From Spirochaetota bacterium (GTDB lineage Bacteria > Spirochaetota > UBA4802 > UBA5550): a stretch of 64,000 nt of DNA. Positions within the stretch are counted from its first letter, which is position 1. Every line of letters starts with the position of its first letter. Both the position numbers and the translations under genes were made by a program. Positions 1 through 18,054 of the stretch are shown one piece after another. The stretch lies in the NCBI GenBank assembly GCA_963664815.2, contig CAXXHB010000003.1, positions 480,001-544,000 of the forward strand, read 5' to 3'. The notes under the pieces were generated by a model. It was not told where the DNA came from and did not search any database. It saw nothing but the letters and a program-made list of their open reading frames with translations.

Positions 1-1089
1 AAAGGATGGTATATAAATTCAAGCCAGACTTATAATGCAGGCGATACATTTATGATATATAGTAACGTTACATTGTACGCGAAGTGGCTTTACGGGTACG
101 GTATAACCTATGACGGCAATGGAAGCGATTCCGGTACAGTGCCTGTTGATACCCTTTATGCGGCTGGTGACAGTGTTCCGATAAAAAGCAACACAGGGAG
201 TCTTGCCAGAACAGGATACCTGTTTCAGGGATGGCATACTTCGGCAGGTGATTCCTATTATCCGGGTGGGAATCCATTAACAATGAGCACTTCAGGAGCT
301 GTTCTTTACGCAAGCTGGGGAGATCGGCAGATTTTCACAGGTTATGGCACGATAAATATTTACGGGGACTGTACTGTCACTGTAAAAGCCTGGGGCGGCG
401 GCGGACAGGGGGGATATTATAACGGAAATACCGGTGGTGGAGGGGGATATTCATATTCTGCATTTACTGCTGAAAATGGTGACGTGCTCCATGTCGTAGT
501 TGGAGCCGGAGGTGGGAATACAAAAACTTCCGGTATGCCTGGCCTCGGGGAATCCAACGGTTATCAAGGCGGCGATGCATCGCTTGTAGTCCTTTACAGG
601 GGTGGGTTATATAATTTAAAATGCTGTGCCGGCGGCGGAGGGGGCAGCAGTTACAGCAACGGGTATAAAGGAGGTGCGGGGGGAGGTTCTTATGGCCAGG
701 CTGGTACGGGCAGTAATTCTGGTGGAGGAGATGGAAATGGCGGAGCAGGTTATTCCGGAATACCGGCTACTTATGGAAGCAATATGCTTAAATCTTCAGC
801 AACTCTTGAAGGATTGGGCGGAAAAGGGGGACGCCCGGTCTCAAATCTTGGAGGTTCTGGCGGCGGCGGATATGGCGGTGGAGGTACGAGTTGTTACAAT
901 TTAGGTTATAATGCAGGAAGTGGCGGCGGCGGATACTGCGAAGGTACAGGATACTCAACTCTTACAGGCACGAATTCAAAACCGGGTAACAGTACAGATT
1001 CAGATCTGCCCTCAGGATATGCAATCGGCGGTGCACAGAATACAAATGGCGGGAACGGTTATGTTATTGTTTCCATAGTGTATAACTGA
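1..1089 (+). CDS. 5'-truncated surface protein: InlB B-repeat (Listeria/Bacteroides repeat) domains plus C-terminal glycine-rich domain
   Basis: Frame 1 is open from base 1 (KGWYINSS...). Repeats end VTLYAKW / AVLYASW with a GYLFQGW core. C-terminal VKAWGGGGQGG...GGNGYVIV Gly-rich domain. Confidence 0.75.
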   Translation, partial: KGWYINSSQTYNAGDTFMIYSNVTLYAKWLYGYGITYDGNGSDSGTVPVDTLYAAGDSVPIKSNTGSLARTGYLFQGWHTSAGDSYYPGGNPLTMSTSGAVLYASWGDRQIFTGYGTINIYGDCTVTVKAWGGGGQGGYYNGNTGGGGGYSYSAFTAENGDVLHVVVGAGGGNTKTSGMPGLGESNGYQGGDASLVVLYRGGLYNLKCCAGGGGGSSYSNGYKGGAGGGSYGQAGTGSNSGGGDGNGGAGYSGIPATYGSNMLKSSATLEGLGGKGGRPVSNLGGSGGGGYGGGGTSCYNLGYNAGSGGGGYCEGTGYSTLTGTNSKPGNSTDSDLPSGYAIGGAQNTNGGNGYVIVSIVYN

Positions 1090-1385: not shown

Positions 1386-1643
1386 CTATTCAGGCTTCTT
1401 ATAATGTGCGCTATATCTGTCAATAACGGTTTTAATCATTGTCTGGTATGGAACCCCGGCTTTTTTTGCTTTTTCTTTGAAAAAATCAACGCTTGATTTA
1501 CTCAGGGAAATAGTAATCTTAACATTATCTTCTTTTTTTATTAATAGTTCCGGAGCTGGCAGAAAATCTTCAATAGTTTCTGAAGACATTATTGATTCTG
1601 CTAATTCCGGAGGAGCTGATTTATAAGTTGTTTTCTTTTTCAT
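1386..1643 (-). CDS. BrnA/CopG-like RHH antitoxin
   Basis: VKITISLSKSSVDFFKEKAKKAGVPYQTMIK ribbon-helix-helix. Overlaps the toxin 3' end. Confidence 0.8.
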   Translation of the reverse strand: MKKKTTYKSAPPELAESIMSSETIEDFLPAPELLIKKEDNVKITISLSKSSVDFFKEKAKKAGVPYQTMIKTVIDRYSAHYKKPE

Positions 1644-1899
1644 ATTTTTTTCTCCCTTCCCGCCAGTAACCGGCTCCGAATATTCTTATTCTGTTATTTC
1701 TTACTGTAAAACGTACGGTCATTATTTTATCTTCGACCAGTCCAAAGCAGAAATATCTTTTTTCAGCTTTTGTTGTATGTTTTGCATCAACAGCTATAAC
1801 TCTTTTTTTGTCAAAAAATGCATTCTGAGCATCAAAAAATGACACGTCATGTTTTGAAATGTTTTCTCTGTTTTTATTTTCATCCCACTCAAAATTCAT
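1621..1899 (-). CDS. brnT: BrnT-family (DUF497) toxin
   Basis: MNFEWDENKNRENISKHDVSF...EKRY...FTVRNNRIRIFGA. Start placed at ATG 1899 from family length and promoter position (ORF track gives 1911). Confidence 0.85.
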   Translation of the reverse strand: MNFEWDENKNRENISKHDVSFFDAQNAFFDKKRVIAVDAKHTTKAEKRYFCFGLVEDKIMTVRFTVRNNRIRIFGAGYWREGRKKYEKENNL

Positions 1900-1906
1900 A
1901 TGTACC

Positions 1907-1934
1907 ATCATACATATTATAAGCCATATGTCAA
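1907..1934 (-). promoter_or_regulatory. sigma70-type promoter of brnTA
   Basis: Minus strand TTGACA (1934-1929), 16-nt spacer, TATGAT (1912-1907). Confidence 0.55.
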
Positions 1935-2227
1935 ATTTTATGCCGCCGGTTTTTATAAAAAAACTGTGTTTTCTGACCGGACGTACGGGTCGGTTGGTTC
2001 TTTCCGCCTGACTATGACTCTGTTCCGGGATACTGTAATATCGGCATATTTTTGAGGTTTTTAAACAGATGAGTTGTTATCAAAATTGTAAATTCCGGCA
2101 GCGGGGTCTTCAGTGGTTATTTATACGCTATATTTTTGTCTGAGAGTTTGCATACCCGGTCAAAAACCGGTTTTTCCGGTTAATCTTTTGGCCGGGTGTA
2201 TCATCCGCTGAAGATCCCGCTGTCATG

Positions 2228-5200
2228 TCAGGCGGGAATTGTCAGGATAAAGATGTTGCCCCCTTCAGGATTGCGTTTTGTCGCAATACGGCCGTTAAGT
2301 TCCCTGACCCCCTTTCTGACACCGGAAAGGCTGAACCCGGTTGAACGCCCCGCATCAAAGAGCTGATTAAGATCCTCCCTGTCAAGCCATTGCCCTGAAT
2401 CGGTGATCCTTATTATAATGGAGCCATTCTCTTTATCTGTGCTTACCCCTATCTGCCCGTTTTCACCGGACAGGAACACCGCATTGGTAATAAGATCGCT
2501 CACTACGGATGAGAGTACAGCCGGATTCCCTGTAAATGACGGGCCTCCCGGTGTTATTATGAATTCGCTCCTGGCGCCGTGGTTTCTCTTCACCGCCTCC
2601 ACCGCGTCGGCAATAATTGCGTCAAGGGATTCATCTTCCCCGTCTCCCAGAAGGTTGAGGGCATCAATTAAAGCCCTCCTGGCTCTTCCCCTGTTTTCCT
2701 TTTTAATGTTTTCAAGATCAAGGGAGATGTTAAAACCGGACGTACGTTCCTCAACAAGCCTGTTCTGCTTCTTCAGATTTTCGTTTGTATCAATAACCTG
2801 GTATGTCTTGATGGGGTGATCAATCCCCTTGACCATTACATCCTCCTTTTCAAGACAGTAGTATTTATGTGAAACAAGGGAATACGTTTCATGAGAGATG
2901 AGCACCTGGTCTGTATCGGCCGAGCTTTCAAGCCTGCTTGCAAGGTTTACCTGCGACCCGATAATCGTGTAATCCATCCTTGCCTCGCTGCCGAAATTCC
3001 CCACTGTGCAGTAACCTGTACTTATGCCCATTCTCACATGGAACGGTTCAGCTATTCCATGCTCAAACCAGCGGTTCTGCAGGTATCTGAGCCGCGATTT
3101 CATCTCCACGGCCATGTCCACAGCCGCAACTGCGTCCATCTGTTCGCCCCTGCTATCCGGATCGCCGAAAAATACAAGTATGGCGTCGCCTATGAATTTG
3201 TCAATCGTGGCGCCATATTTTATGGCGATTTGCGACATCTCGTTCAGATAACTATTGAGAAGTTCGGTTAGTGATTCGGTCTCCATTCTTTCAGTTGTCT
3301 GTGTAAAATTCTTTATGTCGGAGAAGAATACTGTGAGCTTTTTCCTGGTGGATGCGATTTTCACATCCTGCTTTCCCGTTAAGATCATATCCCTGATCTG
3401 GGGCGAAAGATATTTTGACAGATTTCCCGAGAGTGATTCAAGTATTGAATTCATGTCGTTGAGCTTGTTCATGGTCTCCTGCAGCTCGCTGGTTCTTTCG
3501 TCAACTTTCTTCTCAAGATTTTCGGTGAAGTCCCTCAGCGTCACAATCATGCTGTTGAAAGTTTTTGCAAGCATGCCTATTTCATCATGTGTGCTGGTGT
3601 CGATCCTCACGTTATAGTTTCCCGATGAAACCGCCTCTGTGGAGGAGATCAGGTGTTTAATGGGATTTGTAATGTTTTTCGAAAGAAATACAACTATTAA
3701 TATGGCGATCGGCGTTATAATAAAAAATCCCATGAGAAAGTTTAACCTTGTCCCCGCAGTAATACTGTTGATTGTTTCCATGAGTTCGGATTTACTTTTA
3801 TTTATATCATCAATGTATGTACCAGTGCCAAGCCACATGTTTGTCCCCGGAACGTTCATTGCTGTGCCAAGCTTGGGATATATGCCTTCGACTCCGGGCT
3901 TACTCCAGTAGAATTCAAGGAACATGCTTTTATTTTTGGCCGCTTCATCAAGTTCCCTTATGATGTACTGCTTACCCTCCGGGTCCTGCATGTCCCACAG
4001 GTTCTTACCCTCAAGATTTTTATTCAGCCCGTGAATCAGGTTTTTGCCGGTTCCGGCCTCGTATGCGTAGAAATACCCGTCTGTGCCGAACCGCAGCTGC
4101 CTCAGAACATCCTGTGTAAGCTTTAACCTCTCAGCCTGAGGGAGTTTATTCATGCCGTTGATCACAGTTGCAAGAGATACGGCCATCTCCGTGTTGTTCC
4201 GGAGCATGAAGCGGTATTTATCGGTCAGCAGGGTCTCGGACTTTTTCATCATATAATCGCTGTACCCTGTGAATGAAAAATTAAATATAAAGTATATCAC
4301 GGCAAAGCTCACAACAAGAGTTGCTATGAGAAATGTGAGAAGTTTGGCAAGAATGCTGTTTTTTCTTGGGAACCTGTCTTTAATGCTGTTCTTCATCCGG
4401 ACCAGGAGTTCCATGAGAGATGCGGGATCTGCGCTGTTTTTAAAATATCCGCGCCATTTGTAAAAAAGATCAGCCATTACCACGATTCCGAGAACAGCTA
4501 TAAAAATTATGAGGAACGCGTTCATTCTCAGATTAAAAGCCTCCGTGGGATTCTGTACTTTGGAGGCTTTTTCAAAGAAGATAAAGACCATCTGCCACGC
4601 CGCTATGTATGATGTTATCAGCATGAAGAGCATGGGGATTACTGTTATCCATATATATTTAACCTTGTCAGTCTTGATCAGAAGAGTGGTGCCTATACCC
4701 AGCGCGGTTGCTGCCAGAATCTGGTTTGCGATACCGAACATGGGCCATATTGTTGAGATGTTGCCGGTGAACAGAAGATAACACCACATAAGAACAATTA
4801 TAAGGCTTGTAACGATAATGTTGATTTCATTTTTATGATTTGAAAAGGGTTTATAGATTCTGCCCCCTATCTCCTGAAGCATGAATCTGCCGACCCTGGT
4901 TCCGGCATCAACAAGAGTCAGAATAAACAGGGCTATAAACATGAGCGAGTAGTTATACCAGTATGGCAAAGCGGCCTTCCCGCCGAAAAGTGATGAAAGC
5001 AGAACCGACATCCCTGCGGCAATCGAAACCGCACCCCCTGTCCTCCCCTGTAGTTCCAGCCCTATGATCTGCGAAAGATCCTTAACCCTTGATACGGGAA
5101 ACCCTATTGATGCCAGCATGTCAGGTGATAACTTTGTATTAATGGCGAAATAATCGCCGGGGATAAGCACAGATGCGGCAATAAGCGCTATCACCGCCAC

Positions 5201-6328
5201 AAAACCTTCAACCAGCATTGAACCGAAACCTATGAGGGGAATGTCCTTTTCGGACATAATCATTTTCGGCGTAGTGCCGGAAGAGATCAGCCCGTGAAAT
5301 CCTGAAATCGCGCCGCAGGCAATGGTAATAAACAGAAAGGGGAAAAGGGTTCCGGGAATAATGGGGCCGCCCCCTGCTATGTATTGTGTGGCTTTTGGCA
5401 TCTCCATAACCGGCATGTTTATAACGATTGCAGCCGCAAGGAGAATAAATGTTCCCACTTTAAGGTATGCCGAAATGTAATCCCTGGGAACAAGGAGCAG
5501 CCAGATCGGCAGGGCCGAGGAGAGGAAACAGAGAATTCCCAGATAAATAATAAGCCTGTTTTTATCAATTGTAAAAATATGGGCAATGGATGAGCCTGGT
5601 ATGCTGCTCCCCAGCAGAACCGCTGCAAGGAGCAGCAGCGCGCCGACTATGCTCACCTCCATTATCTTCCCATGCCTTAAAAAGCGCATATAGATCCCCA
5701 TGAATATGGCGATGGGGAATGTGAGCATGAGAGTGAATGTACCCCAGGAATTCATATTCAGGGAATTTACAACTGACAGCGCTGCGCCGGCAACAGCGAC
5801 AATGACATTGAACACGATTATTAATGCCAGCACAATTCCGCTGAGAGAGCCGATTTCATCCCTTGCTATCTGCGCAAGGGAATGACCCTTGTGCCTGGCT
5901 GAAGCGGCAAGTATAACCATATCATGAACCGCACCGGCAAGCGTGGCGCCGACAAGAATCCATAAGAACCCGGGAAGGTACCCGAACTGTGCGGCCAGCG
6001 TGGGACCTATAAGAGGCCCTGCCCCTGCTATTGCCGCGAAATGATGCCCGAAGAGAACCCACTTATTCATCGGGTAATAATCCACGCCGTCACGCTCCGT
6101 TTCGGATGGCATCAGGTTTGTCTCGTCAAATGCCAGAACCTTTGAGGCGATAAAGGCGCCGTAAAATCTGTATGTTATTATAAAAATGCAGGCAGTAGCT
6201 ACAATAAGCCAGACCGCATTGACTTTTTCACCGGGATTAAGAAACCCCGCGATTACGGCAAGGGATACAGCCGCAATAAAAGATACTATAACCCATATAA
6301 GTTTTTTAAAGATCTTAACTGCCGACAT
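2228..6328 (-). CDS. Fusion protein: CstA-family transporter + single Cache domain + HAMP + class III adenylate cyclase + degenerate HATPase_c
   Basis: CstA motifs FGHHFAAIAGAGPLIGP, FITIACGAISGFH, DAGTRVGRF, IWPMFGIANQ (~aa 1-630). TM, then Cache (LRFGTDGYFYAY, GKNLWDMQDPEGKQYIIREL, WLGTGTYIDD), then TM. HAMP (PIKHL...DEIGMLAKTFNSM). Cyclase (FFSDIKNFT, DKFIGDA, DYTIIGSQVNLASRLE). C-terminal LITNAV / ITDSG / GNIFILTIP. Confidence 0.9.
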   Translation of the reverse strand: MSAVKIFKKLIWVIVSFIAAVSLAVIAGFLNPGEKVNAVWLIVATACIFIITYRFYGAFIASKVLAFDETNLMPSETERDGVDYYPMNKWVLFGHHFAAIAGAGPLIGPTLAAQFGYLPGFLWILVGATLAGAVHDMVILAASARHKGHSLAQIARDEIGSLSGIVLALIIVFNVIVAVAGAALSVVNSLNMNSWGTFTLMLTFPIAIFMGIYMRFLRHGKIMEVSIVGALLLLAAVLLGSSIPGSSIAHIFTIDKNRLIIYLGILCFLSSALPIWLLLVPRDYISAYLKVGTFILLAAAIVINMPVMEMPKATQYIAGGGPIIPGTLFPFLFITIACGAISGFHGLISSGTTPKMIMSEKDIPLIGFGSMLVEGFVAVIALIAASVLIPGDYFAINTKLSPDMLASIGFPVSRVKDLSQIIGLELQGRTGGAVSIAAGMSVLLSSLFGGKAALPYWYNYSLMFIALFILTLVDAGTRVGRFMLQEIGGRIYKPFSNHKNEINIIVTSLIIVLMWCYLLFTGNISTIWPMFGIANQILAATALGIGTTLLIKTDKVKYIWITVIPMLFMLITSYIAAWQMVFIFFEKASKVQNPTEAFNLRMNAFLIIFIAVLGIVVMADLFYKWRGYFKNSADPASLMELLVRMKNSIKDRFPRKNSILAKLLTFLIATLVVSFAVIYFIFNFSFTGYSDYMMKKSETLLTDKYRFMLRNNTEMAVSLATVINGMNKLPQAERLKLTQDVLRQLRFGTDGYFYAYEAGTGKNLIHGLNKNLEGKNLWDMQDPEGKQYIIRELDEAAKNKSMFLEFYWSKPGVEGIYPKLGTAMNVPGTNMWLGTGTYIDDINKSKSELMETINSITAGTRLNFLMGFFIITPIAILIVVFLSKNITNPIKHLISSTEAVSSGNYNVRIDTSTHDEIGMLAKTFNSMIVTLRDFTENLEKKVDERTSELQETMNKLNDMNSILESLSGNLSKYLSPQIRDMILTGKQDVKIASTRKKLTVFFSDIKNFTQTTERMETESLTELLNSYLNEMSQIAIKYGATIDKFIGDAILVFFGDPDSRGEQMDAVAAVDMAVEMKSRLRYLQNRWFEHGIAEPFHVRMGISTGYCTVGNFGSEARMDYTIIGSQVNLASRLESSADTDQVLISHETYSLVSHKYYCLEKEDVMVKGIDHPIKTYQVIDTNENLKKQNRLVEERTSGFNISLDLENIKKENRGRARRALIDALNLLGDGEDESLDAIIADAVEAVKRNHGARSEFIITPGGPSFTGNPAVLSSVVSDLITNAVFLSGENGQIGVSTDKENGSIIIRITDSGQWLDREDLNQLFDAGRSTGFSLSGVRKGVRELNGRIATKRNPEGGNIFILTIPA

Positions 6329-6439
6329 TATATTACTCCTGTACCAGTTACGGAATATTTAAACGTATTTTGAAGACATATGCATCTCCCGGACAAATCC
6401 GGGCCGGTTTGTTCAATCAATTGATTTATCGAACTGTTT

Positions 6440-6468
6440 ATCATAACTTTTCCGGATGAGGTTGTCAA
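6440..6468 (-). promoter_or_regulatory. sigma70 promoter driving the CstA-cyclase fusion
   Basis: Minus strand TTGACA (6468-6463), 17-nt spacer, TATGAT (6445-6440). AGGAG RBS lies upstream of ATG 6328. Confidence 0.75.
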
Positions 6469-6473
6469 TGGGT

Positions 6474-6512
6474 GTGTAGTGAACTGTGCGTATAGTGTAA
6501 TGAACTGTGCGT
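6474..6512 (-). promoter_or_regulatory. LytTR-type direct-repeat operator
   Basis: GTGTAGTGAACTGTGCGT (6474-6491) and GTGTAATGAACTGTGCGT (6495-6512), period 21. Minus-strand cores ACAGTTCAT / ACAGTTCAC with a 12-nt spacer fit the LytTR consensus [TA][AC][CA]GTTN[AG][TG] (second core has one mismatch). Confidence 0.75.
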
Positions 6513-6667
6513 CCTGTTCGAATTTTTTCTTAGATGCAGCGTAAAATTTCATACCACAGCTCGCCGTCAATTACCGCATTTTGTGCGTAATTATGGAGTG
6601 TTTTCCATTTTTCAGGTCCCCTTTAATATCTTGACGTGAAGGCTACACTTCTGCGATTATTTCACTC

Positions 6668-9547
6668 ATGATCAGGCATCTTATGAAAAAAACAATACCC
6701 GGGATATCTGCCCTCTGTTTATTAATTCTCCTGTCCTGCTCAGCCGGGGGTTTGCCCGACAATAGGCAGCCGGCCGTAAATGGTACAATAAACTTCACTG
6801 CTGCTGATTCTGAAAAGAATCCGGTCAATCTTGACGGCCGGTGGGAGTTCTACTGGAACCGCCTTCTTGAGCCCCGTGATTTTTCCGGAAACCCGGAGCA
6901 GGATGGCAGGGTATATATTAATGTGCCGGGGTTGTGGAAGGGGCTCAGGGTTAATAACACTGATCTGCCTGGCGATGGTTACGCCACATACCGCCTTAAG
7001 ATAAATAACAGCAGAGGAAAATCCGTCACATCAAAGACCAGTTCTCTGGAAATATCCGGCATATGCTCCGCGTACAGGCTCTGGATAAATGGTGTCCTGC
7101 TGTCGCAAAGGGGCATTGTAGACATGTCCAGGGATGCCCGTGAACAGTTCATCTTTATATACCACACAAGGATAGTATCTTTCCAGCTCAGAGAGGGTAT
7201 TAACGAAATCGTTATACAGGTGCTTAACTATCATCTTGAGTCCGGCGGCATAGTTAACGCACCTCGCCTGGGGGACGGGGAAACCGAATTGCGGAAACAG
7301 CTGCATACCGGCATTGCAGATATGATTGTGATAAGCCTGCTGCTTTTTGTTTCCATTTACAATATACTGCTGTTTCTGTACAACAAAAAAGACCGTGCGG
7401 CGCTCTACATGGGACTCTTCAGCCTGGTATGGACAATAAACCTGTTCAACCTTCTTACACCTGTTATAAACGATTATTTTTCAAATAACAGGATACCCTA
7501 CCTGGTGGATGCGATCACCATAATGATCATCGCCCCCCTTTTAGTCATGTCAATACACGCCCTCTATCCGGAGGATGCTTTTCCTGAGATTTATAAGCCG
7601 TTTCTGCGGACAGCTCTGGCATATGCGGGAGTTTCCATCATACTTGTACTTGTTTCGGGGTTCAAAGCATCGGAGGGTATAATAGCGGTTTACTATTACT
7701 ATGGTATAGTGGCCATGATATTTTTCGCCTGGGTTTTAGTCAGGATACTGTATAACCGCAGGAACGATGCAATGCTTTTTTTTATCGGTTTTGTCTCTTT
7801 CTTCATTGTGTCGATAAACGACATACTCTGCACACTGCATGTCATCGATACAGTATTTGTTTTTCAGTACGGAATGCTGATATTCTGCTTTACCACCTCA
7901 CTGGTTGTTTCACGCAGATTTGCATTGGCGCTGAAGAAGGTGGAAAATCTTACCATGGTACTGGAAGAAAAGAACATGGCCCTTCTTGAAATGGACAGAC
8001 TCAAGAACGAGTTTCTGGCCAGCACCTCCCATGAGCTGAGGACTCCGCTTCACGGAATGATAGGCCTGTCCGAATCGATGATGCAGGGGACTGCCGGAGA
8101 CCTCCCCGCCATGGCAGTGGAGAATCTTTCACTCATAGCTTCAAGCGGGCACCGTCTCGCCGGTATGGTCAATGATCTGCTGGACATGGCAAGAATACAG
8201 GATGAAATGATGAGCCTTAACCTCAGGCCGGTGGACCTCTTTTCACTCACCGATATGGTCGTAAAGCTTTCACTTCCGCTGGTCGGCGGAAAACCGCTTG
8301 AAATAATAAACAGTATCGAACCGGGAATACCTGCGGTTATGGCAGATGAAGAGCGTATAAGGCAGGTGATGCACAACCTTGTGGGAAACGCCGTGAAGTT
8401 CACCGGCAGAGGAACAGTGACTGTTTCTGCATCGGTGGTTACTCAGGATGAACAGGATATTACACAGTGCAAAATGGTCGAGGTGCGCGTCACGGATACT
8501 GGTATAGGAATTCCACCGGAGTATCGCGAGGCCATATTTGAGCCGTATCGCCAGGTTGATGGCGGTGACACGCGCAGGTACTCAGGTACGGGTCTGGGGC
8601 TTGCCATAGCAAAAAGTATTATTGAACTGCACAAGGGCATAATCAGTGTAAATTCAGGGGAGGGGGGTTCTGTCTTTTCATTCACTCTGCCTGTGTCACC
8701 TGATCAGTCCGGGGCGGATGATCCGGCCGCATCTGAAAGCTTTGATGATACAGCTCTATTCAATGGTGACCTGGAGAGATCATTATCCGTTAAAGCTTCA
8801 GATGGCGAGGTGTTCGACGGAAGCCCGGTGCTCCTGGTCGTGGATGATGACCCGGTGAATGTGCGTATTCTGCAGAATTTTTTTGAATCAAAGAACTGCG
8901 CTGTAAAAACGGCCTTCGACGGAATAAGCGCTCTTGATATTCTGCAAAACGACAGTACAATCGACCTGGTGCTCCTTGATATCATGATGCCGGGTATCTC
9001 CGGTTACGAAGTGTGTAAAAGAGTGCGCCTGGAACATTCTGCAGATGTGCTGCCGGTAATAATGCTCACTGCTAAAAACATGATGTCCGACATAGACGCC
9101 GCGTTTCTGGCCGGCGCCAATGATTACATAGTAAAGCCTTTCAGGATTGCGGAGCTTATGGCCCGCGTAAAGACCATGCTCAAACTGAAGAATATCAGCC
9201 GTACGGAAGCAGAGAGCATCACGATACAGTCATGGAACAACGAATACACTATCAGGTTCGCTGATATTGTCTACATCACCTCACACTCCAGGAACATCAC
9301 TGTACATGCAGTTAAACGCGACTTTGAACTAGCTGTTTTAATGAAGGACATTATTCACCGTCTCCCCCCGGATAATTTCATACGCATACATAAGAGCTAT
9401 GTGGTGAATATAAACTATATTTACAATCTCCAGCATGTGATTTCCGGGAGGTACAAGGCAAGGCTTAAGGATGAGGACGAAACGGATCTGCCGGTTGGGC
9501 CTTCATTCCTTGAAGAGCTGAGGATGAAAATTCACGATAAGAAATAA
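6668..9547 (+). CDS. Single-chain hybrid sensor/regulator: extracytoplasmic beta-sandwich + 7TM (7TMR-DISM-like) + HisKA + HATPase + receiver + LytTR
   Basis: LDGRWEFYWNRLL...INVPGLW, about 7 hydrophobic helices, FLASTSHELRTPL, NLVGNAVKFT, DTGIGI, GTGLGLAI, VVDDD...LLDIMMP...KPF. LytTR: DIVYITS...FIRIHKSYVVNINYI. Confidence 0.9.
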   Translation: MIRHLMKKTIPGISALCLLILLSCSAGGLPDNRQPAVNGTINFTAADSEKNPVNLDGRWEFYWNRLLEPRDFSGNPEQDGRVYINVPGLWKGLRVNNTDLPGDGYATYRLKINNSRGKSVTSKTSSLEISGICSAYRLWINGVLLSQRGIVDMSRDAREQFIFIYHTRIVSFQLREGINEIVIQVLNYHLESGGIVNAPRLGDGETELRKQLHTGIADMIVISLLLFVSIYNILLFLYNKKDRAALYMGLFSLVWTINLFNLLTPVINDYFSNNRIPYLVDAITIMIIAPLLVMSIHALYPEDAFPEIYKPFLRTALAYAGVSIILVLVSGFKASEGIIAVYYYYGIVAMIFFAWVLVRILYNRRNDAMLFFIGFVSFFIVSINDILCTLHVIDTVFVFQYGMLIFCFTTSLVVSRRFALALKKVENLTMVLEEKNMALLEMDRLKNEFLASTSHELRTPLHGMIGLSESMMQGTAGDLPAMAVENLSLIASSGHRLAGMVNDLLDMARIQDEMMSLNLRPVDLFSLTDMVVKLSLPLVGGKPLEIINSIEPGIPAVMADEERIRQVMHNLVGNAVKFTGRGTVTVSASVVTQDEQDITQCKMVEVRVTDTGIGIPPEYREAIFEPYRQVDGGDTRRYSGTGLGLAIAKSIIELHKGIISVNSGEGGSVFSFTLPVSPDQSGADDPAASESFDDTALFNGDLERSLSVKASDGEVFDGSPVLLVVDDDPVNVRILQNFFESKNCAVKTAFDGISALDILQNDSTIDLVLLDIMMPGISGYEVCKRVRLEHSADVLPVIMLTAKNMMSDIDAAFLAGANDYIVKPFRIAELMARVKTMLKLKNISRTEAESITIQSWNNEYTIRFADIVYITSHSRNITVHAVKRDFELAVLMKDIIHRLPPDNFIRIHKSYVVNINYIYNLQHVISGRYKARLKDEDETDLPVGPSFLEELRMKIHDKK

Positions 9548-9618
9548 AAAAAACCTTGTTTTGTTGCAAGAATATTTATATTATAAAACCAGAGCTGCAG
9601 TTAAAGTGAGGATTAAAT

Positions 9619-9975
9619 ATGAAAATTTTCTTTTCTCTTTTAATGTCATTTATTGTTACCCTGTCCCTTGGGGGATGTAAAAAAAATACGGTTGTTCAGG
9701 AAAAAGCGCCTGTGCTGACAGTGGAGGATTTTAAGTATGTCCGGAATAGTATAGGGCCTTTCAGTTCATTTGATGCAGGAATAAAAAAGGCTGTTCAGAA
9801 GCTCGGAAAACCTCATAAAAAAGAGGGGAGAAGATCATACTGGTACGTGAAGGATGATAAGGCATGTACCGAGTTTTTCATTGAGGAGATGGGGGGAAAT
9901 ATGATAGGAGGGACCGGTATTACACCGATGGAGCCGGGTACCTATATGTTCAGCAATTGTCCGGTAAAATATTAA
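9619..9975 (+). CDS. Hypothetical lipoprotein
   Basis: Signal peptide with lipobox LGGC; GAGG RBS. Confidence 0.65.
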   Translation: MKIFFSLLMSFIVTLSLGGCKKNTVVQEKAPVLTVEDFKYVRNSIGPFSSFDAGIKKAVQKLGKPHKKEGRRSYWYVKDDKACTEFFIEEMGGNMIGGTGITPMEPGTYMFSNCPVKY

Positions 9976-10021
9976 GAATGATACAGTATGGAATATTTAA
10001 AAAATATAGAATTTAATACAT

Positions 10022-10054
10022 AAAAAAGGCTGCCTTCAAGGGCAGCCTTTTTTT
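10022..10054. terminator. Bidirectional intrinsic terminator
   Basis: AAAAAAGGCTGCC-TTCAAG-GGCAGCCTTTTTTT between convergent genes. Confidence 0.8.
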
Positions 10055-10124
10055 ACATAAAAGAAGTTTCAATAACATGATTTTTACGGGGTTAAAGGGA
10101 ACAGCCCCGTAAAAATCGGAAATT

Positions 10125-11993
10125 CTATTCTTCGAGTGATCCTGTAAATGTGTTGTCAGATGCCTTGGTTGTTGCCCCTTCATTAAACTTGATAGCTTCA
10201 ACTCTTCCGAATACTTTCGGGAATTCATTTCCAAGGTAGAACTGTGCAGAGAGAACTCTTCCTGAATAATATGCTGCTTCGCTGTTTTCTGAGAGGAGTT
10301 TTTCCCTGTCAGCGCCTTTAAGATCTCCAACAAGAGCTTTCATCTTGGGAACAGATACTGTTAAACTCCAGAGATGACACCATGCAATAGCCACCATGTA
10401 CATAACATCAAGGAAAGGTGTGGCATGTGCAAAAATAGAAAGGAACTGGCCTTTGCCGAGCATCCCTTTGAAAATCTCGAGAAGTTCATCAACCTCTTTG
10501 ATCCCTCTTGAGAGAAGGTCAATATATTTGTCTTCAACGATACCTTTGGCTTTTGCTATAACACCTTCCATTCTTGATTTAAGAACAGAATAGTTGTACT
10601 GATTTTTGTTCATGAGAATTTTTCTCATTATAAGGTCCATTGCCTGGATTCCGTTTGTTCCTTCATAGAGGCAGAGGATCTTGGAGTCTGCCATGTGTCT
10701 TGCAACAGGGTAGTCTCTGCAGTATCCGTATCCGCCATATACCTGCATTGCCATTGATGTGATTTCAACGCCCTTATCTGTACATCCTGCTTTACAGATA
10801 GGAACAAGAAGTTCAAGCATTGCGCTGGCTTCTTTGCTGATTGTGGGATCGCTGCTCTTCATGATGTCATTCTGCATGTAAAGGAAGTCGATGAGAATTC
10901 TCTGTCCCTCGATGTGTGATTTCATCCAGAGGAGCATTCTTTTAACGTCGGGATGTTTGCTGATGGAAACAAGAGGAGCATCAGGATTCATCATCTGGAT
11001 TACATCAACGCCCTGGAGCCTGTTTTTCGCGTATGTTACAGCATGCATATATGCTGCAGATGCGTTTCCATGAGCCTGCATTGAAACACCGCAGCGCTCT
11101 TCGTTCATCATCTGGAACATGATTTTCATACCCTGGCGCTCTTCGCCGAGAAGGTATCCGATACAGTCGTTGTTGTCGCCGAAAGCGAGCTGTGAAGTAG
11201 CCTGGCCGTGGAGACCCATCTTGTGCTCAACGCCGGTACATGTTACATCGTTAAATTTTCCCATTGAACCGTCAGGATTAACGCGGTATTTGGGGACTAT
11301 AAAGATTGATATACCCTTTGTTCCCTTGGGATCCCCTTCAATTCTTGCAAGTACAGGGTGAACCATGTTTTTGTAGTGGTCATTTTCACCTGAGGAGATG
11401 AATATTTTCTGGCCGGTAATTTTATATGTTCCATCGGGCTGTTTTACAGCTTTGGTTTTAAGGTTACCTACATCTGATCCTGCATCCGGTTCTGTAAGGC
11501 ACATTGTTCCGCCCCATTCCCCTGTCATGATCTTGTCGCCATAGAGTTTACTCTGCTCCGGAGTTCCGAATGTAAAGTAGAGTTCCATTGCTCCGTGAGA
11601 AAGTCCGGGATACATTCCGAAAGGCATGTTTGCCGCACATACATATTCCATAACGGCCGAGTTAACCGCAAAGGGCATACCCATTCCGCCATGTTTAGGG
11701 GTAACAGCAACTCCCATAAAACCTGCTTCGTAGAATGCGTCAAGCGCCCCGTGAAAGCATTTGGGTATTGTTACCGCTTTGGTAACCGGGTCCCATTTAA
11801 CTCCCTCATTATCACCCTCTTCGGCAGTGGGATAGATAACGTTGACGGAAATCTGTTCCGCGAGATCAATTACCGCTTCAAAGGTATCATGATCAAAATC
11901 ACCAAATTCCGGGTACTTTACGAGTTTGTCAATTTCGAACATTTCAAATAAAACAAACTTGACATCTCTTGTGTCGACCAACGTATTAAGCAT
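10125..11993 (-). CDS. Acyl-CoA dehydrogenase (long, ~600-aa subfamily)
   Basis: GTMCLTEPDAGSDVG, GQKIFISSGE, EHKMGLHG, QVYGGYGY, LYEGTNGIQAMDL. Confidence 0.92.
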   Translation of the reverse strand: MLNTLVDTRDVKFVLFEMFEIDKLVKYPEFGDFDHDTFEAVIDLAEQISVNVIYPTAEEGDNEGVKWDPVTKAVTIPKCFHGALDAFYEAGFMGVAVTPKHGGMGMPFAVNSAVMEYVCAANMPFGMYPGLSHGAMELYFTFGTPEQSKLYGDKIMTGEWGGTMCLTEPDAGSDVGNLKTKAVKQPDGTYKITGQKIFISSGENDHYKNMVHPVLARIEGDPKGTKGISIFIVPKYRVNPDGSMGKFNDVTCTGVEHKMGLHGQATSQLAFGDNNDCIGYLLGEERQGMKIMFQMMNEERCGVSMQAHGNASAAYMHAVTYAKNRLQGVDVIQMMNPDAPLVSISKHPDVKRMLLWMKSHIEGQRILIDFLYMQNDIMKSSDPTISKEASAMLELLVPICKAGCTDKGVEITSMAMQVYGGYGYCRDYPVARHMADSKILCLYEGTNGIQAMDLIMRKILMNKNQYNYSVLKSRMEGVIAKAKGIVEDKYIDLLSRGIKEVDELLEIFKGMLGKGQFLSIFAHATPFLDVMYMVAIAWCHLWSLTVSVPKMKALVGDLKGADREKLLSENSEAAYYSGRVLSAQFYLGNEFPKVFGRVEAIKFNEGATTKASDNTFTGSLEE

Positions 11994-12388
11994 ATAAGCC
12001 TCCCATATTTTTATATTTATAGAAAAGTTTAACGGGGCTGACTAAAAAAGTGAAAGTCCCCTGCATTGATGGGGGCTGACTTGTCAGACAATCCCGGATA
12101 GACGAAAAGCAAATATATTGTTACTTTCACCTGCCATAAAGTTAATTTGTATGTAATTTTTGTAAACTGATTTTTATTGAGTCTATAATTTGTTGTTTAT
12201 ATATACTGCGCATGCGTATGCGGAATGAATATAAGATAAATACATTTAAAGCGTATTGACAGACTGAAAATATGTCAAATAAGCGAAGTCATGTAACTGA
12301 TTTATCTGATTATATCTGTATGTGATATGTAAAACTGTAGAAAAATCATAACTGAAGAAAAGTTCAGTGCAGTATAAAAAGAAAAATT

Positions 12389-12497: not shown

Positions 12498-14663
12498 TTA
12501 AATCATTTTAGAACTTCTCAGAGCGGATAGAAGCACTTTGCGCATAATTTTTTCTTTACGGTTTGAGGGCTTATCAAGCTGCATCCTCCTGAGGAAGGGT
12601 TCTGCCTTTGCAGGAACCGGTTTAAACATCTCGGCCAGAAGTCCTTTAAGGACATCTGATTTTTTCCTGCTGGTAAGTCCCTTCAGCGCTGCCCCGAGAA
12701 CCATCTCCTCCATGGTGAAATCTGTCCCGAAGGGGAATGCAGGGAAATAACCCCTGGCCTGGTAAGGCTTCAGCATTGCTTCCAGCTTCTGGGGGGTATT
12801 GTGCCTGTATTCATCGGCAAGTTTGAAATCGGGTGCCAGCTTCCCGTTAAGCTTGGCTTTCTGTATAAGTTCATCCTGGAAGCGGGAATCTGTTATTTTC
12901 AGAATCTCTTCAATGACCTTTGAATCCTGGAGTCCTCTTACGCTGGCTATACCGTATTCGGTAACTATAATATCCCTCAGGTGCCTTGGAATTGTAGTAT
13001 GGCCGTAGTTGTAGACTATATTGGATTTTGTGTTTTCCCCGGAACCCCTTGTGCTCTTGATCATCATAATAAGCCTTCCGTCGGGGATTGCATGTGCCAT
13101 TGAAACAAAATTATACTGTCCGCCGACTCCGCTTATAAGACGGCCGTCTTCAAGCTGATCGGATGTAATGGCTCCAAGCAGATGCGCCATCATCCCTGCG
13201 TTTACGAAACGCCCCTCTTTTCTCTGGAGTACGCGGAGTTCCTCATCCCCGTAAAGCTGGTTTACCTTTTCAACGCCCGACATTCCAAATTGGGTTCTCT
13301 CCTCCTCGCTCATTGCGTTCAGGGCGTCGTAGAAGGAGTGAGGCCCCAGGAAGAATGCCCCGAGCAGTACCTTGCCGTTTTTAAGCCGGTCGCCGAGGAA
13401 TATTTTAATCTCTTCCAGGTTCTTCTTCTCGTAGAAGTCTGCCGAAACTTTTATGTTCCCGTCACTGATAAAACCATCTTTGAATGTGAGCCCTTTTTTC
13501 AGTATGCCGAACGTTGTCAGCATTTTAAAATCCTTCTCTCTCAGCCTCGGGTAAATACCCTCAACCTCTATAAGGAGTTCCAGGATGTTTGAAGGGATGC
13601 TGTCGCCCGTGAGCTTTCCGGATTTGAAAAGCCTCATGATGCCGAGGTTGTCGTAGACCTTGCGTTTAATAACACCCTCTTTGTACAGCTGAAGCAAGCC
13701 GTTGACGATCATCTCCGAGGAACCGTATAACCCTTCTTCGAATGTACCGGTACCGCCGATTTTATCTATAACGCTCTTGTGCCGGTCGAGGATACCATTC
13801 TCCTTCAGCAGCCTGTTGTAATCTTCATTGTGTTTGTGGCGCATTATAAGGCTTGAGGCAATTGCGTCTCCCAGTGATCCTATCCCTATCTGGAGTGTGC
13901 CGCCGTCCTTGACAAGTGTGCTTACGTAAAGCCCTATGGCGTGGTTGGCAATTCCTATTGAATCGTTGGGGGTGCCGAAAAGGTTTGTCTTGAATTCGGG
14001 CCCCTCGAAAATAATATCATATGTATCAGCTTCAATAACCGCGTCGCCATACATAAACGGCACTGTGGGGTTAACCTCTCCCAGTATTACAACCTTGCCC
14101 CCCCTGTCCCGTATCTTGTTAAGCTCCTCGAAAGCCTGAAACGCAATATCCGTGGCACACCCCATTGAGTAGGCCTTCTGCCCGTCACGGTCGGCCGTCG
14201 TAAGAATCTGCCCGAAAACGTTGCACCCGAAATCGATGGCATCTCTCACTATATGAGCGTAGTTAGAGTAAAGGTGGTTCCTCTGGGCTTCGGGGATGCG
14301 CAGGGCGCTGCCGGCCTTGTAGAAGAATTCATAAATTGAAACGTTTTTCGGGAGCTTGCCGCTGTGGAAATCGGCAATGTAGTCATAGACAGGTACTCCG
14401 TCAAAAATCCTGTCAAGCAGGGGCTCTGCAAATCTTTTTTCCATATCGCTTTTTGTTTTTGGTCGTTCAAGCGAGAGGCTTGTAACTATCTTCAGTTTAA
14501 TCGAGGGATCTTCCTTTGCCCTCCTGTAAAGCTCGTTGATAAACCTTGTCGGGTTACCAATTCCCAGGGGCATGGCGAAAGTGATATCCTTCTCCATGTA
14601 GTTGATGATATCATCAACCCCCTTCCTTACATCACTGTAGACTTCACCTTTCTTTCCGTTCAT
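12498..14663 (-). CDS. Acetyl-CoA hydrolase/CoA-transferase family protein
   Basis: DGGTLQIGIGSLGDA, SGVGGQYNFV, TTIPRHLRDIIVTEYGIA. Confidence 0.85.
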   Translation of the reverse strand: MNGKKGEVYSDVRKGVDDIINYMEKDITFAMPLGIGNPTRFINELYRRAKEDPSIKLKIVTSLSLERPKTKSDMEKRFAEPLLDRIFDGVPVYDYIADFHSGKLPKNVSIYEFFYKAGSALRIPEAQRNHLYSNYAHIVRDAIDFGCNVFGQILTTADRDGQKAYSMGCATDIAFQAFEELNKIRDRGGKVVILGEVNPTVPFMYGDAVIEADTYDIIFEGPEFKTNLFGTPNDSIGIANHAIGLYVSTLVKDGGTLQIGIGSLGDAIASSLIMRHKHNEDYNRLLKENGILDRHKSVIDKIGGTGTFEEGLYGSSEMIVNGLLQLYKEGVIKRKVYDNLGIMRLFKSGKLTGDSIPSNILELLIEVEGIYPRLREKDFKMLTTFGILKKGLTFKDGFISDGNIKVSADFYEKKNLEEIKIFLGDRLKNGKVLLGAFFLGPHSFYDALNAMSEEERTQFGMSGVEKVNQLYGDEELRVLQRKEGRFVNAGMMAHLLGAITSDQLEDGRLISGVGGQYNFVSMAHAIPDGRLIMMIKSTRGSGENTKSNIVYNYGHTTIPRHLRDIIVTEYGIASVRGLQDSKVIEEILKITDSRFQDELIQKAKLNGKLAPDFKLADEYRHNTPQKLEAMLKPYQARGYFPAFPFGTDFTMEEMVLGAALKGLTSRKKSDVLKGLLAEMFKPVPAKAEPFLRRMQLDKPSNRKEKIMRKVLLSALRSSKMI

Positions 14664-14907: not shown

Positions 14908-15408
14908 CTACTTTTCAGCTTCAGGATTCATGCCGAGAAGCTTTGCAAAGACAAGGACTCCCCCTGTAAAGAAAACTCCGCCCGCCGCAAGGACAATAAG
15001 CCACTGGACGGTTGGCTGCTCCTTGCCGAATATAAGCGCGATGGTGAAATAAACAAAGGCATAGTTGTTGAATAAAAGATGAGCAACATCTCCCAGCGCA
15101 ATTATAAGGAAAACACAGATGAAAACTACAAGAAGCGTTCCGCCGGTGGCGCCAAGTGACGGGGCAATCAGTTCAACAGCATGAGGAACCGATGCCGCAA
15201 GCAGAAGCCCGACAGCGGCTCCGATAAAGATGTTGGCAAGGTTTTTAACATCCCCCTTCTGCTCAAAGAAAAAAAGCAGTGTAAGAAAAGCCGGCCATCC
15301 CTGGGTAATTTTAAATGCACCGAGACCTACAAGCGTAACGCATAGCCATGCAGCGACAATAACTCCGGCAATGATTGTTTCCTTTTTGAATCCTTTCTTT
15401 TCCGCCAT
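14908..15408 (-). CDS. Small multi-pass membrane protein (DUF1097-like)
   Basis: 5-6 hydrophobic helices, GWPAFL motif, AAGGAG RBS. Confidence 0.6.
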   Translation of the reverse strand: MAEKKGFKKETIIAGVIVAAWLCVTLVGLGAFKITQGWPAFLTLLFFFEQKGDVKNLANIFIGAAVGLLLAASVPHAVELIAPSLGATGGTLLVVFICVFLIIALGDVAHLLFNNYAFVYFTIALIFGKEQPTVQWLIVLAAGGVFFTGGVLVFAKLLGMNPEAEK

Positions 15409-15858: not shown

Positions 15859-16461
15859 TTATATTAATTTAATTCTTTTTCTGAGCCTTGAAAGGGCTAC
15901 ATCGGTTATACGCAGATATGATGCGATGTGGTATTGCGGCAGCCTGCGGACAATCTCCGGGTGTTTTTTTATGAACCTTAAATACTGTACTTCGGGAGAA
16001 TCAAGGACACCACTCTCTCTTGCTTCAATCTGGATAAGAGAGTTTTCCGCTATTAAACGGCCGAGCCTCTCCCAGCACTTGTGTCTTTCATACAGCTCGT
16101 CAATTTTTGATCTCCATAAAAGGCCGGCAACAGTATCTTCAAGGGCCTGGATATAAAACCTGCTGGGTAAAGATTTGATCATGGAGCCTATGGAACCGAC
16201 CAGGTTATTTTCAATGGCAAATCCCCTGTTGAACTCCTTGCCCGTGTCGGTTAAATAGTAGATGCGTACCAGCCCTTTGACAATAATAAATGAATGGTCT
16301 GCAACGGTATCAGCAGTAAGAAGGTATTCGTTCTTTTTAAAACGCTGAATGGTGATACAGTTTATGGCATAGTTCCACTCCTCATCGGGGATATGAGTAT
16401 ATGTTTCAAAAACATCTCTTATTTGCAGAAGTGCATCATCCATAGTCGGTTTCCGTTTCAC
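15859..16461 (-). CDS. Crp/Fnr-family cNMP-binding transcriptional regulator
   Basis: IVKGLVRIYY...GKE, PSRFYIQALED, PQYHIASYLRITDVALSRLRK HTH. Confidence 0.85.
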   Translation of the reverse strand: MKRKPTMDDALLQIRDVFETYTHIPDEEWNYAINCITIQRFKKNEYLLTADTVADHSFIIVKGLVRIYYLTDTGKEFNRGFAIENNLVGSIGSMIKSLPSRFYIQALEDTVAGLLWRSKIDELYERHKCWERLGRLIAENSLIQIEARESGVLDSPEVQYLRFIKKHPEIVRRLPQYHIASYLRITDVALSRLRKRIKLI

Positions 16462-17079: not shown

Positions 17080-17478
17080 ATGGATATCGATAGAAAAGTA
17101 ATGTATTGGATTAAAAGCGCTGAAAGCGATTTTGAAGCTTCGACAGCTCTTTTTAATAATGCCAGTTATCTGCAGATGGCTTTCTTCTGTCATCTTGCCG
17201 TAGAGAAATATTTAAAAGCATACCACTGGTATAAACTTCATACGGAACCGACTTATACCCATAATCTTTTAAAACTGTCAAAAGATAACGGTTTGTTTGA
17301 GTATTTGTCAAATGAGCAAAAGGAGTTTATGGCTGCACTCATCCCTTTGAATCTAAAAGGCAGGTATCCAGATGATCAGGACACAATATTATTGAATCTT
17401 ACATCAGCTGATTTTGAAGATATACTACATAAAACGAAGGAGCTCCTGGAATGGATCAGAAAGTATTTAACAGAGTGA
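17080..17478 (+). CDS. HEPN domain protein
   Basis: WIKSAESD, FFCHLAVEKYLKA, THNLLKL, RYP motifs; paired with an MNT gene. Confidence 0.85.
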   Translation: MDIDRKVMYWIKSAESDFEASTALFNNASYLQMAFFCHLAVEKYLKAYHWYKLHTEPTYTHNLLKLSKDNGLFEYLSNEQKEFMAALIPLNLKGRYPDDQDTILLNLTSADFEDILHKTKELLEWIRKYLTE

Positions 17479-18036: not shown

Positions 18037-18054
18037 ATTGTTTAAGTTATAATA

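Follow-up and report, generated by a model that had tools for sequence, protein, structure and literature searches.

The locus described here lies in a 64-kb window (G000:C3:480001-544000, the whole stretch of DNA that was analysed, to whose positions we refer below) of the Spirochaetota genome G000, which counts 5.2 Mb in three contigs with 37-41% G+C. It consists of two divergent open reading frames (ORFs) separated by an intergenic region of 339 nt. The first encodes P0001, a fusion of a CstA-type transporter, a Cache sensor and an adenylate cyclase. The second encodes P0002, a membrane sensor kinase that carries its own receiver and its own LytTR DNA-binding domain. Between them stands a direct repeat of the LytTR type, just upstream of a promoter that faces the fusion gene. 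The named relatives of the locus proteins all carry the label Spirochaetota. Judged from domain content and from comparison across genomes, this locus is a member of an undescribed and sizeable Spirochaetota family of kinase-receiver-LytTR regulators, together with a nearly unique fusion gene captured as its predicted target.

Two divergent multidomain genes and the region between them

P0001 is encoded on the minus strand (2228..6328, stop codon included) and counts 1366 residues, in which ORF calling, translation and Pfam delineate a CstA-sCache_2-HAMP-class III adenylate cyclase-HATPase_c architecture. The CstA transporter module (residues 37-574; 4607..6220, minus strand) covers essentially the whole Pfam model (PF02554, 652 bits, profile positions 1-558 of 560). 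Its NCBIfam CstA score, 548 bits, stays under the equivalog cut-off of 1188, and the protein is therefore a member of the family and not the orthologue of E. coli CstA. The CstA part is also the best conserved one, its first 500 residues or so being 88-89% identical among the fusion copies vs about 73% from residue 514 onward. A periplasmic sCache_2/dCache_2 domain follows (residues 696-860; 3749..4243, minus strand; PF17200, 93.9 bits, and PF08269), bracketed in the hydropathy profile by hydrophobic segments at about 663-681 and 864-882, then a HAMP domain (residues 881-933; 3530..3688, minus strand; PF00672, 55 bits). The catalytic domain of a CyaB-like class III nucleotidyl cyclase comes next (residues 995-1178; 2795..3346, minus strand; PF00211 Guanylate_cyc, 100.8 bits), and the chain ends on a HATPase_c domain (residues 1269-1365; 2234..2524, minus strand; PF02518, 47.7 bits).

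The cyclase domain aligns over the whole catalytic domain of Pseudomonas CyaB (3R5G) with 259.8 bits, and the FFSDI, KFIGDA and NLASRLE stretches are aligned and identical or near-identical, so that the catalytic residues of class III adenylate cyclases are all found in P0001. The roles given to such residues in the family are those of metal-binding Asp, substrate Lys and transition-state Asn/Arg. This alignment places the P0001 cyclase close to the adenylate cyclase CyaB. In the C-terminal HATPase_c tail, an alignment with the two fusion homologues P0003 and P0004 and with the unfused P0241 shows that the N-box Asn and the D-x-G motif are kept.

The closest solved relatives of the Cache domain are 2QHK/4EXO (81 bits), then 4K08 and 5G4Y. 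In the alignments to 2QHK and 4K08, a Tyr, a His (in LIHG) and a Lys (in PKLG) line up with residues of these two chains. As described, 4EXO holds pyruvate and 4K08 acetate, PscD (5G4Y) binds C2/C3 carboxylates through a Tyr, a His and a Lys given as its carboxylate-binding residues, and single Cache domains appear specialised for carboxylates (PMC5062169). The closeness to these structures supports the assignment of the P0001 Cache to the carboxylate-binding sCache_2 group. E. coli BtsT and CstA are described as pyruvate transporters (PMC7730263). Because the Cache relatives bind carboxylates and the CstA-family relatives carry pyruvate, a small-carboxylate theme common to both modules is plausible.

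P0002 is encoded on the plus strand (6668..9547) and counts 959 residues; the database gene call for this protein, P0390, starts at the ATG at 6683 and gives 954. ORF calling, translation and Pfam outline a lipoprotein-type signal, a periplasmic jelly-roll-like domain, and then 7TMR-DISM_7TM (residues 218-416), HisKA (446-512), HATPase_c (560-677), a receiver (REC; Response_reg 723-835, PF00072, 102 bits) and the LytTR DNA-binding domain (860-955; 9245..9532, plus strand; PF04397, 71 bits). After the lipoprotein-like signal (LLSC) comes a periplasmic part of about 190 residues, whose sole Pfam resemblance, to the sugar-binding domain of family 2 glycosidases (Glyco_hydro_2_N), stays below threshold (19.7 bits for a cut-off of 28). 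PF07696, 7TMR-DISMED2, is carried by more distant members of the family. In an alignment of 16 family members, H455 (in SHELRTPL), N570/N574, D610/G612/G614, G640/G642/G644, D771, T801 and K823 are invariant, and the LytTR domain thus follows a receiver with its phospho-acceptor Asp. Because the phospho-His, the ATP boxes (N, G1 and G2), the receiver Asp and the LytTR domain are all conserved, P0002 is predicted to hold everything for an internal His-to-Asp relay that ends in a DNA-binding domain, i.e., it reads as a single-chain two-component system.

In the intergenic region, the direct repeat comprises two copies of 18 nt with one mismatch (94% identity) and a period of 21 nt. The distal half-site (6495-6512) and the proximal one (6474-6491) form a predicted operator at 6474..6512 on the minus strand, defined by repeat search, genome scans and cross-genome comparison. 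Read on this strand, the two copies are ACGCACAGTTCATTACAC and ACGCACAGTTCACTACAC, and the 12-mer TGAACTGTGCGT has exact matches in the 64-kb window at these two copies only. The repeat stops 5 nt short of the -35 hexamer of a sigma-70-type promoter (6440..6468, minus strand), which the promoter scan resolves into TTGACA at 6468-6463, a 17-nt spacer, TATGAT at 6445-6440 and a predicted start at about 6433. With 11 of 12 consensus matches, this promoter has the best sigma-70 score in positions 1900-10100, tied with one other site. Since it lies on the minus strand, the element faces P0001. The half-sites are centred at about -71 and -50 relative to the predicted P0001 start, which is the layout of LytTR-type direct repeats about two helical turns apart upstream of a -35. 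On the other strand, promoter scan and G093 alignment together point to a candidate P0002 promoter (TTGACG-18-GATTAT with TG; 6631..6660, plus strand), with a predicted start near 6667. We also observed that a TTGAC stands at a kept distance from the P0002 ATG in G000 (window 6623-6670) and in the relative G093 (L142, about 12300-12340), which suggests that the candidate P0002 mRNA has little or no leader.

These results agree with most of what a first-pass annotation, made from the letters alone, had read at this place. Both divergent multidomain ORFs are present where it had put them, and Pfam confirms the domain content that it had given to each, the HATPase_c tail of P0001 being an addition. 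The repeat and promoter scans likewise find its direct repeat just upstream of a TTGACA-17-TATGAT promoter facing the CstA fusion. Its proposal of a transporter with its own sensor and its own cyclase in one protein is borne out, as far as predicted functions go, by the intact ORF, the sCache_2 domain and the CyaB-like cyclase. Across four DNA runs, contigs carry the stretch unchanged, and one that covers all of 2000-9800 with zero differences may come from the source sample. Among the runs listed for 2000-9800 there is none of RNA.

The operator and its regulator family

We scanned G000 with the pattern ACAGTTCA-N11-15-ACAGTTCA, allowing at most one mismatch per half. Among the 17 matches, three share extended flanks (GACGCACAGTTCATT...) and an ATTGACA located 11 nt after the second ACAGTTCA core, i.e., 8 nt when counted from the end of the full half-site. 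A relaxed pattern also gave 17 matches in the 10.4 Mb of G000 (both strands), with the same three real sites, and hence a background of about 1.3 per Mb of strand. The ACAGTT core of the operator resembles the AgrA and general LytTR consensus. The three true sites (the window site, C3:472643 and C3:475675) all lie within about 14 kb, and each adjoins one of three paralogous 7TM-HK-REC-LytTR genes: P0002, HK1 (963 aa) and HK2 (973 aa). The sites C3:472643 and C3:475675 come directly after the stop codons of HK1 and HK2. The first also precedes HK2, and the second precedes an operon of FecR-domain, fn3-beta-barrel and Big_2-Flg_new genes that reaches into the window. HK1, HK2 and this surface-protein operon stand in tandem (L010 5748-8639, 8750-11671 and 11847-17089; G000:C3:469748-481089, into window 1-1089), and the HK2-operator-operon layout is also present in the congener G004. 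The HK1-site-HK2 layout suggests a possible cascade or feed-forward. Apart from this family, a LytTR domain is also found in G000 at the C terminus of a 1308-aa protein with an N-terminal AAA_16/STAND-like NTPase (L011 6117-10043; G000:C3:2206117-2210043).

The proximity of three paralogues raises the possibility that the operator is real but mainly served by HK1 and HK2, whose genes lie 5-15 kb upstream, or by all three proteins, P0002 then not being its dedicated regulator. Indeed, the core half-site (GCACAGTTCA / ACAGTTYA) and the spacing to the -35 are common to all three sites of G000, so that HK1 or HK2 could occupy the P0001 site, and this counts against a dedicated role of P0002; the REC-LytTR parts of the three paralogues are 61-65% identical, and the position of the HK1 site ahead of HK2 is what a cascade among them would look like. 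However, the half-site tail and spacer of the window site (ATTAC...TATACG) are distinctive and shared with G093, vs ATTCC...GGAAGA at the HK1 and HK2 sites. Moreover, in the clade of P0002, G093 and G034 the operator is always divergent and 131-158 nt upstream of the regulator, which argues that each regulator serves the adjacent site. We therefore hold this alternative to be unlikely, and keep P0002 as the probable regulator of the site beside it.

The operator is a property of the family. Using the REC-LytTR part of P0002 as a query, we found proteins of the same architecture, of about 950-1050 aa, in 35 of the 122 genomes of the order (E <= 1e-50). We then examined 28 full-length members with their flanks, over a script window of -700/+250 nt; the relatives in this census are non-independent samples. 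The script found the operator beside 18 of them. A wider scan added L033, L037 and L040, where the operator overlaps the called stop or heads the operon containing the regulator, and one further member has a degenerate copy, spotted by eye. The family element, present beside about 21 of the 28 members, thus consists of two CGCACMGTTCAYTCC half-sites (about 15 conserved nt) followed 8 nt on by ATTGACA. Its consensus reads CGCAC(A/C)GTTCA(T/C)TCC, 8 nt, GCAC(A/C)GTTCAYTCC, 8 nt, ATTGAC. A -10-like hexamer (at least 4 of 6 TATAAT matches) stands at 16-19 nt in 17 of the 23 pattern-defined sites, vs 14% of random positions at the same loci. The pattern was derived from the very sites that it counts, and the independent checks are the G000 background estimate and the footprint seen in G093.

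This footprint appears when the intergenic regions of the window and of G093, the closest orthologue (71% identical protein), are compared: outside the operator block and the -35, conservation is limited to a short stretch at the P0002 candidate promoter. In this alignment the operator is, by its conservation, under clear purifying selection relative to its flanks. The assignment is well supported because the genome scans, the conservation across the family, the G093 footprint and an arrangement like that of AgrA sites all converge on it: the repeat very probably serves this LytTR regulator family as its operator, and is placed to activate the P0001 promoter. Two further occurrences were encountered. 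In the run X3, a 3057-nt contig of another organism matches only a 50-nt operator stretch (window 6479-6528) with 3 differences, which hints at further family operators in that sample. In L035/L036 (G027:C17:1-32000), four regulator genes and four genes for large Flg_new-repeat proteins follow one another in turn, and an operator joins each pair; from its layout, this array is a tandemly amplified regulator-operator-target unit.

The family itself is large, about 90 clusters with the same five Pfam domains being found among the best 120 hits. In public records its members are named 'response regulator', 'ATP-binding protein', '7TM-DISM domain-containing protein' or, by transfer, 'ChiS'. A search of genome contigs with the family alignment (peptides TSHELRTPL and [IV]MLTAKNM) returned mostly unrelated hybrid kinases and only one full member, L044, from a Spirochaetota metagenome-assembled genome (MAG). 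Every G000 operator adjoins a regulator gene, and the same is true in most relatives. This fits regulators that would be membrane-tethered factors acting locally.

Targets of the family and origin of the fusion

At the 23 pattern-defined operators, the target genes mostly code for large repeat proteins that are secreted or sit at the surface, with Listeria-Bacteroides repeat/Flg_new, Big_2, fn3, PKD, FG-GAP, NHL, DUF285, PD40 and Lcl_C domains; one target is a paralogous regulator gene. In five genomes of three families (G006, G025, G054, G089 and G061), a cyclase-domain protein of about 575 aa is the product of the first or second gene after the operator; two conserved proteins, of about 365 and 380 aa and without Pfam family, come next (three-gene sets at L033 11389-15367, L043 12915-17071, L146 2491-6522, L145 8514-11430 and L151 1698-4643). 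These cyclases keep FSDIK, IGDA and NSxSRxE, and a Ser replaces the Lys that precedes IGD in P0001 and CyaB. With the window included, 6 of the 23 operators face a Guanylate_cyc gene, and control of cyclases by this regulator family is therefore predicted to be recurrent. The window is, by its domain content, a variant of this theme, in which the place of the cyclase target is taken by another cyclase, of CyaB-like type, that was already joined to CstA and Cache.

The pairing of this regulator with this fusion is restricted to G000. A quick maximum-likelihood tree built from the 28 regulators places P0002 beside G093 (support 100) and then beside G034 (97), and in these three genomes the operator is divergent from its own regulator and located at 131-158 nt from its start. 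The first-pass annotation had named an unlinked gene pair in related genomes as a ground for refutation, and we found the pair unlinked there: the operator of G093 faces the gene of an NHL-repeat lipoprotein, for which the window holds no match and G000 one weak match elsewhere (E 2e-7). A CstA target is found in the window only, the other 22 of the 23 sites facing other genes, so that a conserved linkage of regulator and CstA-family target, as expected of a system of BtsS/BtsR-BtsT type, is not seen here. Ahead of P0001, of its G000 paralogue P0003 and of the G088 gene, the sequences can be aligned over no more than the last 30 nt or so preceding the ATG. From these comparisons, the pair is a lineage-specific rewiring and not a conserved module. 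On the simplest reading, the regulator-operator cassette would be ancestral to the clade and the fusion gene would have been gained as a new target in the G000 lineage. In our view, the missing linkage elsewhere does not weaken the case that the operator controls P0001 in G000. The phrase 'self-contained circuit', used in the same annotation, thus remains a fair description of this one locus and fails as the name of a conserved system. Similarly, its idea that a sensor with its own LytTR output switches on the fusion is supported as far as the operator is conserved and placed to activate P0001, and does not extend to a family-wide pairing.

The fusion is extremely rare. Four distinct sequences are known to us: P0001, P0003, P0004 and the copy of G088. 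Word-index searches of 5.8 billion clusters with two seeds (CstA, and residues 600-1366) each returned only P0003 and P0004 with the architecture of P0001. P0003 is a paralogue located at G000:C3:2259594-2263685, 80% identical, full length and intact; P0004 is encoded on a Logan contig of 39.5 kb and is 78% identical to P0001. An exhaustive HMMER search with residues 400-1366 over 1.84 billion representatives found the CstA-to-cyclase junction covered by one (50%-identity) cluster. The next matches are two unfused proteins, P0241 with 737 aa (Cache-HAMP-cyclase-HATPase_c, 56%) and P0242 with 578 aa and no tail. Among the 122 genomes of the order, the full-length fusion occurs only in G000 (two copies) and in G088, a genome of the same family but of a different genus. 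Of the seven further congeneric genomes searched (completeness 73-97%), six gave no match at 1e-80, the seventh being absent from the matches listed. The separate parts are found in relatives: a stand-alone CstA of 650 aa in G035 is 53% identical over residues 5-630, and stand-alone Cache-HAMP-cyclases of 577 aa are 54-56% identical over residues of about 647-1230. These unfused precursors, like the 737-aa form with HATPase_c, match end to end, and the fusion thus corresponds to whole genes joined one behind the other. Identities among the four fusion sequences are roughly even (73-89% by region), and a recent duplication can therefore not account for the two copies of G000. Our data support a fusion that is real, intact and essentially undescribed. 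The first-pass annotation knew of no description of such an arrangement, and the open-access text that we consulted contains none of a CstA-cyclase fusion, nor of a hybrid two-component protein with LytTR output.

Such rarity leads one to consider that P0001 is not a working transporter-coupled cyclase, CstA being a mere membrane anchor or sensor, or the whole protein a decaying evolutionary accident. This is the reading that the single 50%-identity cluster among 1.84 billion representatives and the two genomes of 122 would favor, and two defects in the copies bring it further support at the expense of a functional P0001. The G088 gene (L156 463-4484, G088:C72) lies in two frames, split near residue 505, with a run of N near its 3' end; the split could be a MAG error or the mark of a decaying copy. 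The HATPase_c tail is degenerate, Pfam finding no HisKA beside it and the alignment with P0003, P0004 and P0241 no clear G2-box glycine motif, so that a full set of kinase boxes is absent. However, the two G000 copies are full length and intact while being only 80% identical, i.e., they have diverged for long without disruption. Moreover, CstA is both the most conserved part and a match to its whole Pfam model, and the cyclase motifs align with those of CyaB. We thus judge a non-functional P0001 highly unlikely and go on with P0001 as a probably functional fusion.

The genome offers many partners for a cyclase product. Matches in G000 number 10 for Guanylate_cyc and about 23 for cNMP_binding, the CstA genes number three, and the many cNMP-binding proteins thus represent many possible readers of a cAMP output. 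One of them, a 200-aa cNMP-binding protein (window 15859-16461, minus strand), heads a minus-strand run comprising a DUF1097 gene (14908-15408), an acetyl-CoA hydrolase/transferase gene (12498-14663) and an acyl-CoA dehydrogenase gene (10125-11993). Located 6 kb from P0002, it is a candidate local cAMP reader. By tblastn, this downstream run (cNMP-binding, DUF1097, CoA-transferase, acyl-CoA dehydrogenase) is absent near the other fusions and regulators (L156, L009, L142, L041 and L157). Two other neighbors can be mentioned: a BrnT/BrnA type II toxin-antitoxin pair (96 and 85 aa; window 1386-1911, minus strand) between the surface-protein operon and P0001, and a HEPN-domain protein with a DNA methylase (N6_N4_Mtase; window 17080-20301), which may be a defence or mobile island.

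Proposed circuit and comparison with known systems

Taken together, these observations are consistent with the following scheme, which we consider the probable one as a whole. The periplasmic domain and the 7TMR-DISM module of P0002 would control the HisKA/HATPase_c kinase, and the phosphoryl group would pass from H455 to D771 of the protein's own receiver. The fused LytTR domain, as a dimer, would then bind the half-sites near -50 and -71 of the divergent promoter and activate, rather than repress, the transcription of P0001. The induced protein would combine a complete CstA transporter, of pyruvate or peptide type, with a TM-sCache_2-TM-HAMP-adenylate cyclase receptor (TM, transmembrane segment) and the HATPase_c tail; through coupling of these modules, it would turn an extracellular small carboxylate sensed by the Cache domain, or transport through CstA, or both, into cAMP. 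The many cNMP-binding proteins of G000 would read this signal. The wiring would be recent, the operator-regulator pair being ancestral to the clade and the fusion targeted only in the G000 lineage.

Several points weigh against this scheme. The ligand and the transport activity are predicted from family resemblance. The repeat pair is weak when considered in one window, 15 of 100 shuffles equalling the observed count at 2 mismatches; it is because of the genome-wide and cross-genome results, and not of this single pair, that the repeat stands well beyond chance. The operator pattern was not found for 6 of the 28 members (L039, L143, L147, L148, L149 and L157). The orthologous operators face other genes, that of G093 a lipoprotein of 382 aa and those of G034 proteins of 702, 799 and 617-626 aa that fall into no clear family. 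No operator was found upstream of P0003 (L009 8816-9593, by eye and pattern) or of the G088 copy. Finally, the P0001 promoter is so near the consensus that it may fire without activator, and promoters dependent on AgrA are described as typically suboptimal (PMC4227749).

This last point is the root of another explanation, in which the repeats chiefly control P0002 by divergent autoregulation, or are a relic, and P0001 is constitutively expressed from its near-consensus promoter. The 17-nt spacer of this promoter goes in the same direction, as does the recent arrival of the fusion gene, whose homology with the other copies stops so close to its start codon; moreover, L037 and L040 have the operator at the head of an operon whose last gene is that of the regulator. 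In every listed site, however, the distance and orientation from half-site to TTGAC are fixed towards the target, an order that the search pattern itself imposes. The operator also lies about 119 nt upstream of the candidate -35 of P0002, too far for classical activator contact, and in the G093 alignment it shows clear purifying selection relative to its flanks. We regard this explanation as decidedly unlikely, and retain activation of P0001 by P0002 as the preferred scheme.

A wider reading would join the two halves of the locus: P0001 would be the first CstA-family transceptor, in which transport flux and Cache ligand jointly gate the cyclase, and the Spirochaetota 7TMR-DISM-HK-REC-LytTR proteins would be membrane-tethered factors for their own adjacent promoters only, repeatedly wired to cyclase genes (6 of 23). 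We advance it tentatively, as a doubtful but possible extension. If this wider reading is true, the cell would report the availability of carboxylates of pyruvate type directly as cAMP, and there would be a signalling tier where one sensory system transcriptionally installs another sensor, producing a second messenger. Since cyclase genes recur among the targets, this sensor family may be linked in a general way to cyclic-nucleotide signalling. P0001 would be a natural fusion of nutrient transporter and second-messenger synthase, with which one could examine whether CstA transporters signal, and a possible biosensor scaffold. The predicted operator (about 15 nt twice, at a fixed distance from the -35) would define a binding site for a whole uncharacterised family of single-chain sensor-regulators in Spirochaetota, where, to our knowledge, very few transcription factor sites are known. 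The case also illustrates how a conserved regulator-operator cassette may capture a new target gene.

The closest functional parallel is the BtsS/BtsR-BtsT system of E. coli, in which BtsS/BtsR is described as inducing btsT, and cstA as being activated by cAMP-CRP (PMC7730263); the first-pass annotation was right on this background. As here, a LytTR output would act on the gene of a CstA-family transporter, and pyruvate-type carboxylates and cAMP form a common physiological theme (PMC7730263, PMC10653868). The same annotation had gone further and seen the logic of BtsS/BtsR-BtsT compressed into two polypeptides, a proposal that we rejected. Indeed, P0002 is a 7TMR-DISM hybrid of HisKA type with receiver and LytTR fused to it, not a LytS-type kinase with a separate regulator, and Pfam finds in it none of the LytS-type domains (5TM-Lyt/GAF/His_kinase PF06580). 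Moreover, the usual targets of its family are genes of secreted or surface repeat proteins and an operon with a different cyclase, and not CstA genes, the linkage exists in one genome only, and the transporter carries its own sensor and cyclase. The resemblance is a functional analogy and not a homology.

With regard to DNA binding, the predicted operator recalls the sites of AgrA-type LytTR regulators, since AgrA is described as binding two direct repeats immediately upstream of P2 and P3 (PMC4227749), and two direct repeats likewise stand immediately upstream of the -35 here. With about 15 conserved nt (CGCACMGTTCAYTCC), the half-site is, however, the longer one here, the centre of the proximal site falls closer to -50 than to -60, and the regulator is predicted to be membrane-tethered.

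In terms of layout, P0002 is nearest to the hybrid two-component proteins HTCS and ChiS. Bacteroides HTCS unite sensor kinase, receiver and DNA-binding domain in one polypeptide, and Vibrio ChiS is described as a membrane-embedded hybrid kinase that binds DNA directly. P0002 likewise holds periplasmic sensor, TM region, HisKA, HATPase_c, REC and DNA-binding domain in one chain, and would lead from periplasmic sensing to DNA binding within one membrane protein, with nearby promoters as targets. It differs in its output, which is LytTR and not an AraC-type (HTCS) or ChiS-type helix-turn-helix, in its sensor, a 7TMR-DISM with a DISMED2-like periplasmic domain, and in its predicted operator, a LytTR-style direct repeat. 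LytTR would be added to the few output domains on record for hybrid two-component proteins that are tethered to the membrane.

For P0001, two comparisons can be drawn. Its catalytic domain aligns with that of CyaB over the full length, but its N-terminal modules are CstA, sCache_2 and HAMP, with a HATPase_c tail in addition; CyaB carries a MASE2 membrane domain. The bacterial transceptors CbrA and CrbS (SSS transporter and histidine kinase) and Ks-Amt5 (Amt and histidine kinase) also join a full transporter module to a cytoplasmic signalling enzyme in one chain (PMC13022988, PMC5764959). P0001 follows the same principle with different parts: its transporter belongs to the CstA family, its predicted output is a class III adenylate cyclase instead of a histidine kinase, and a periplasmic Cache sensor and a HAMP domain are placed between the two.

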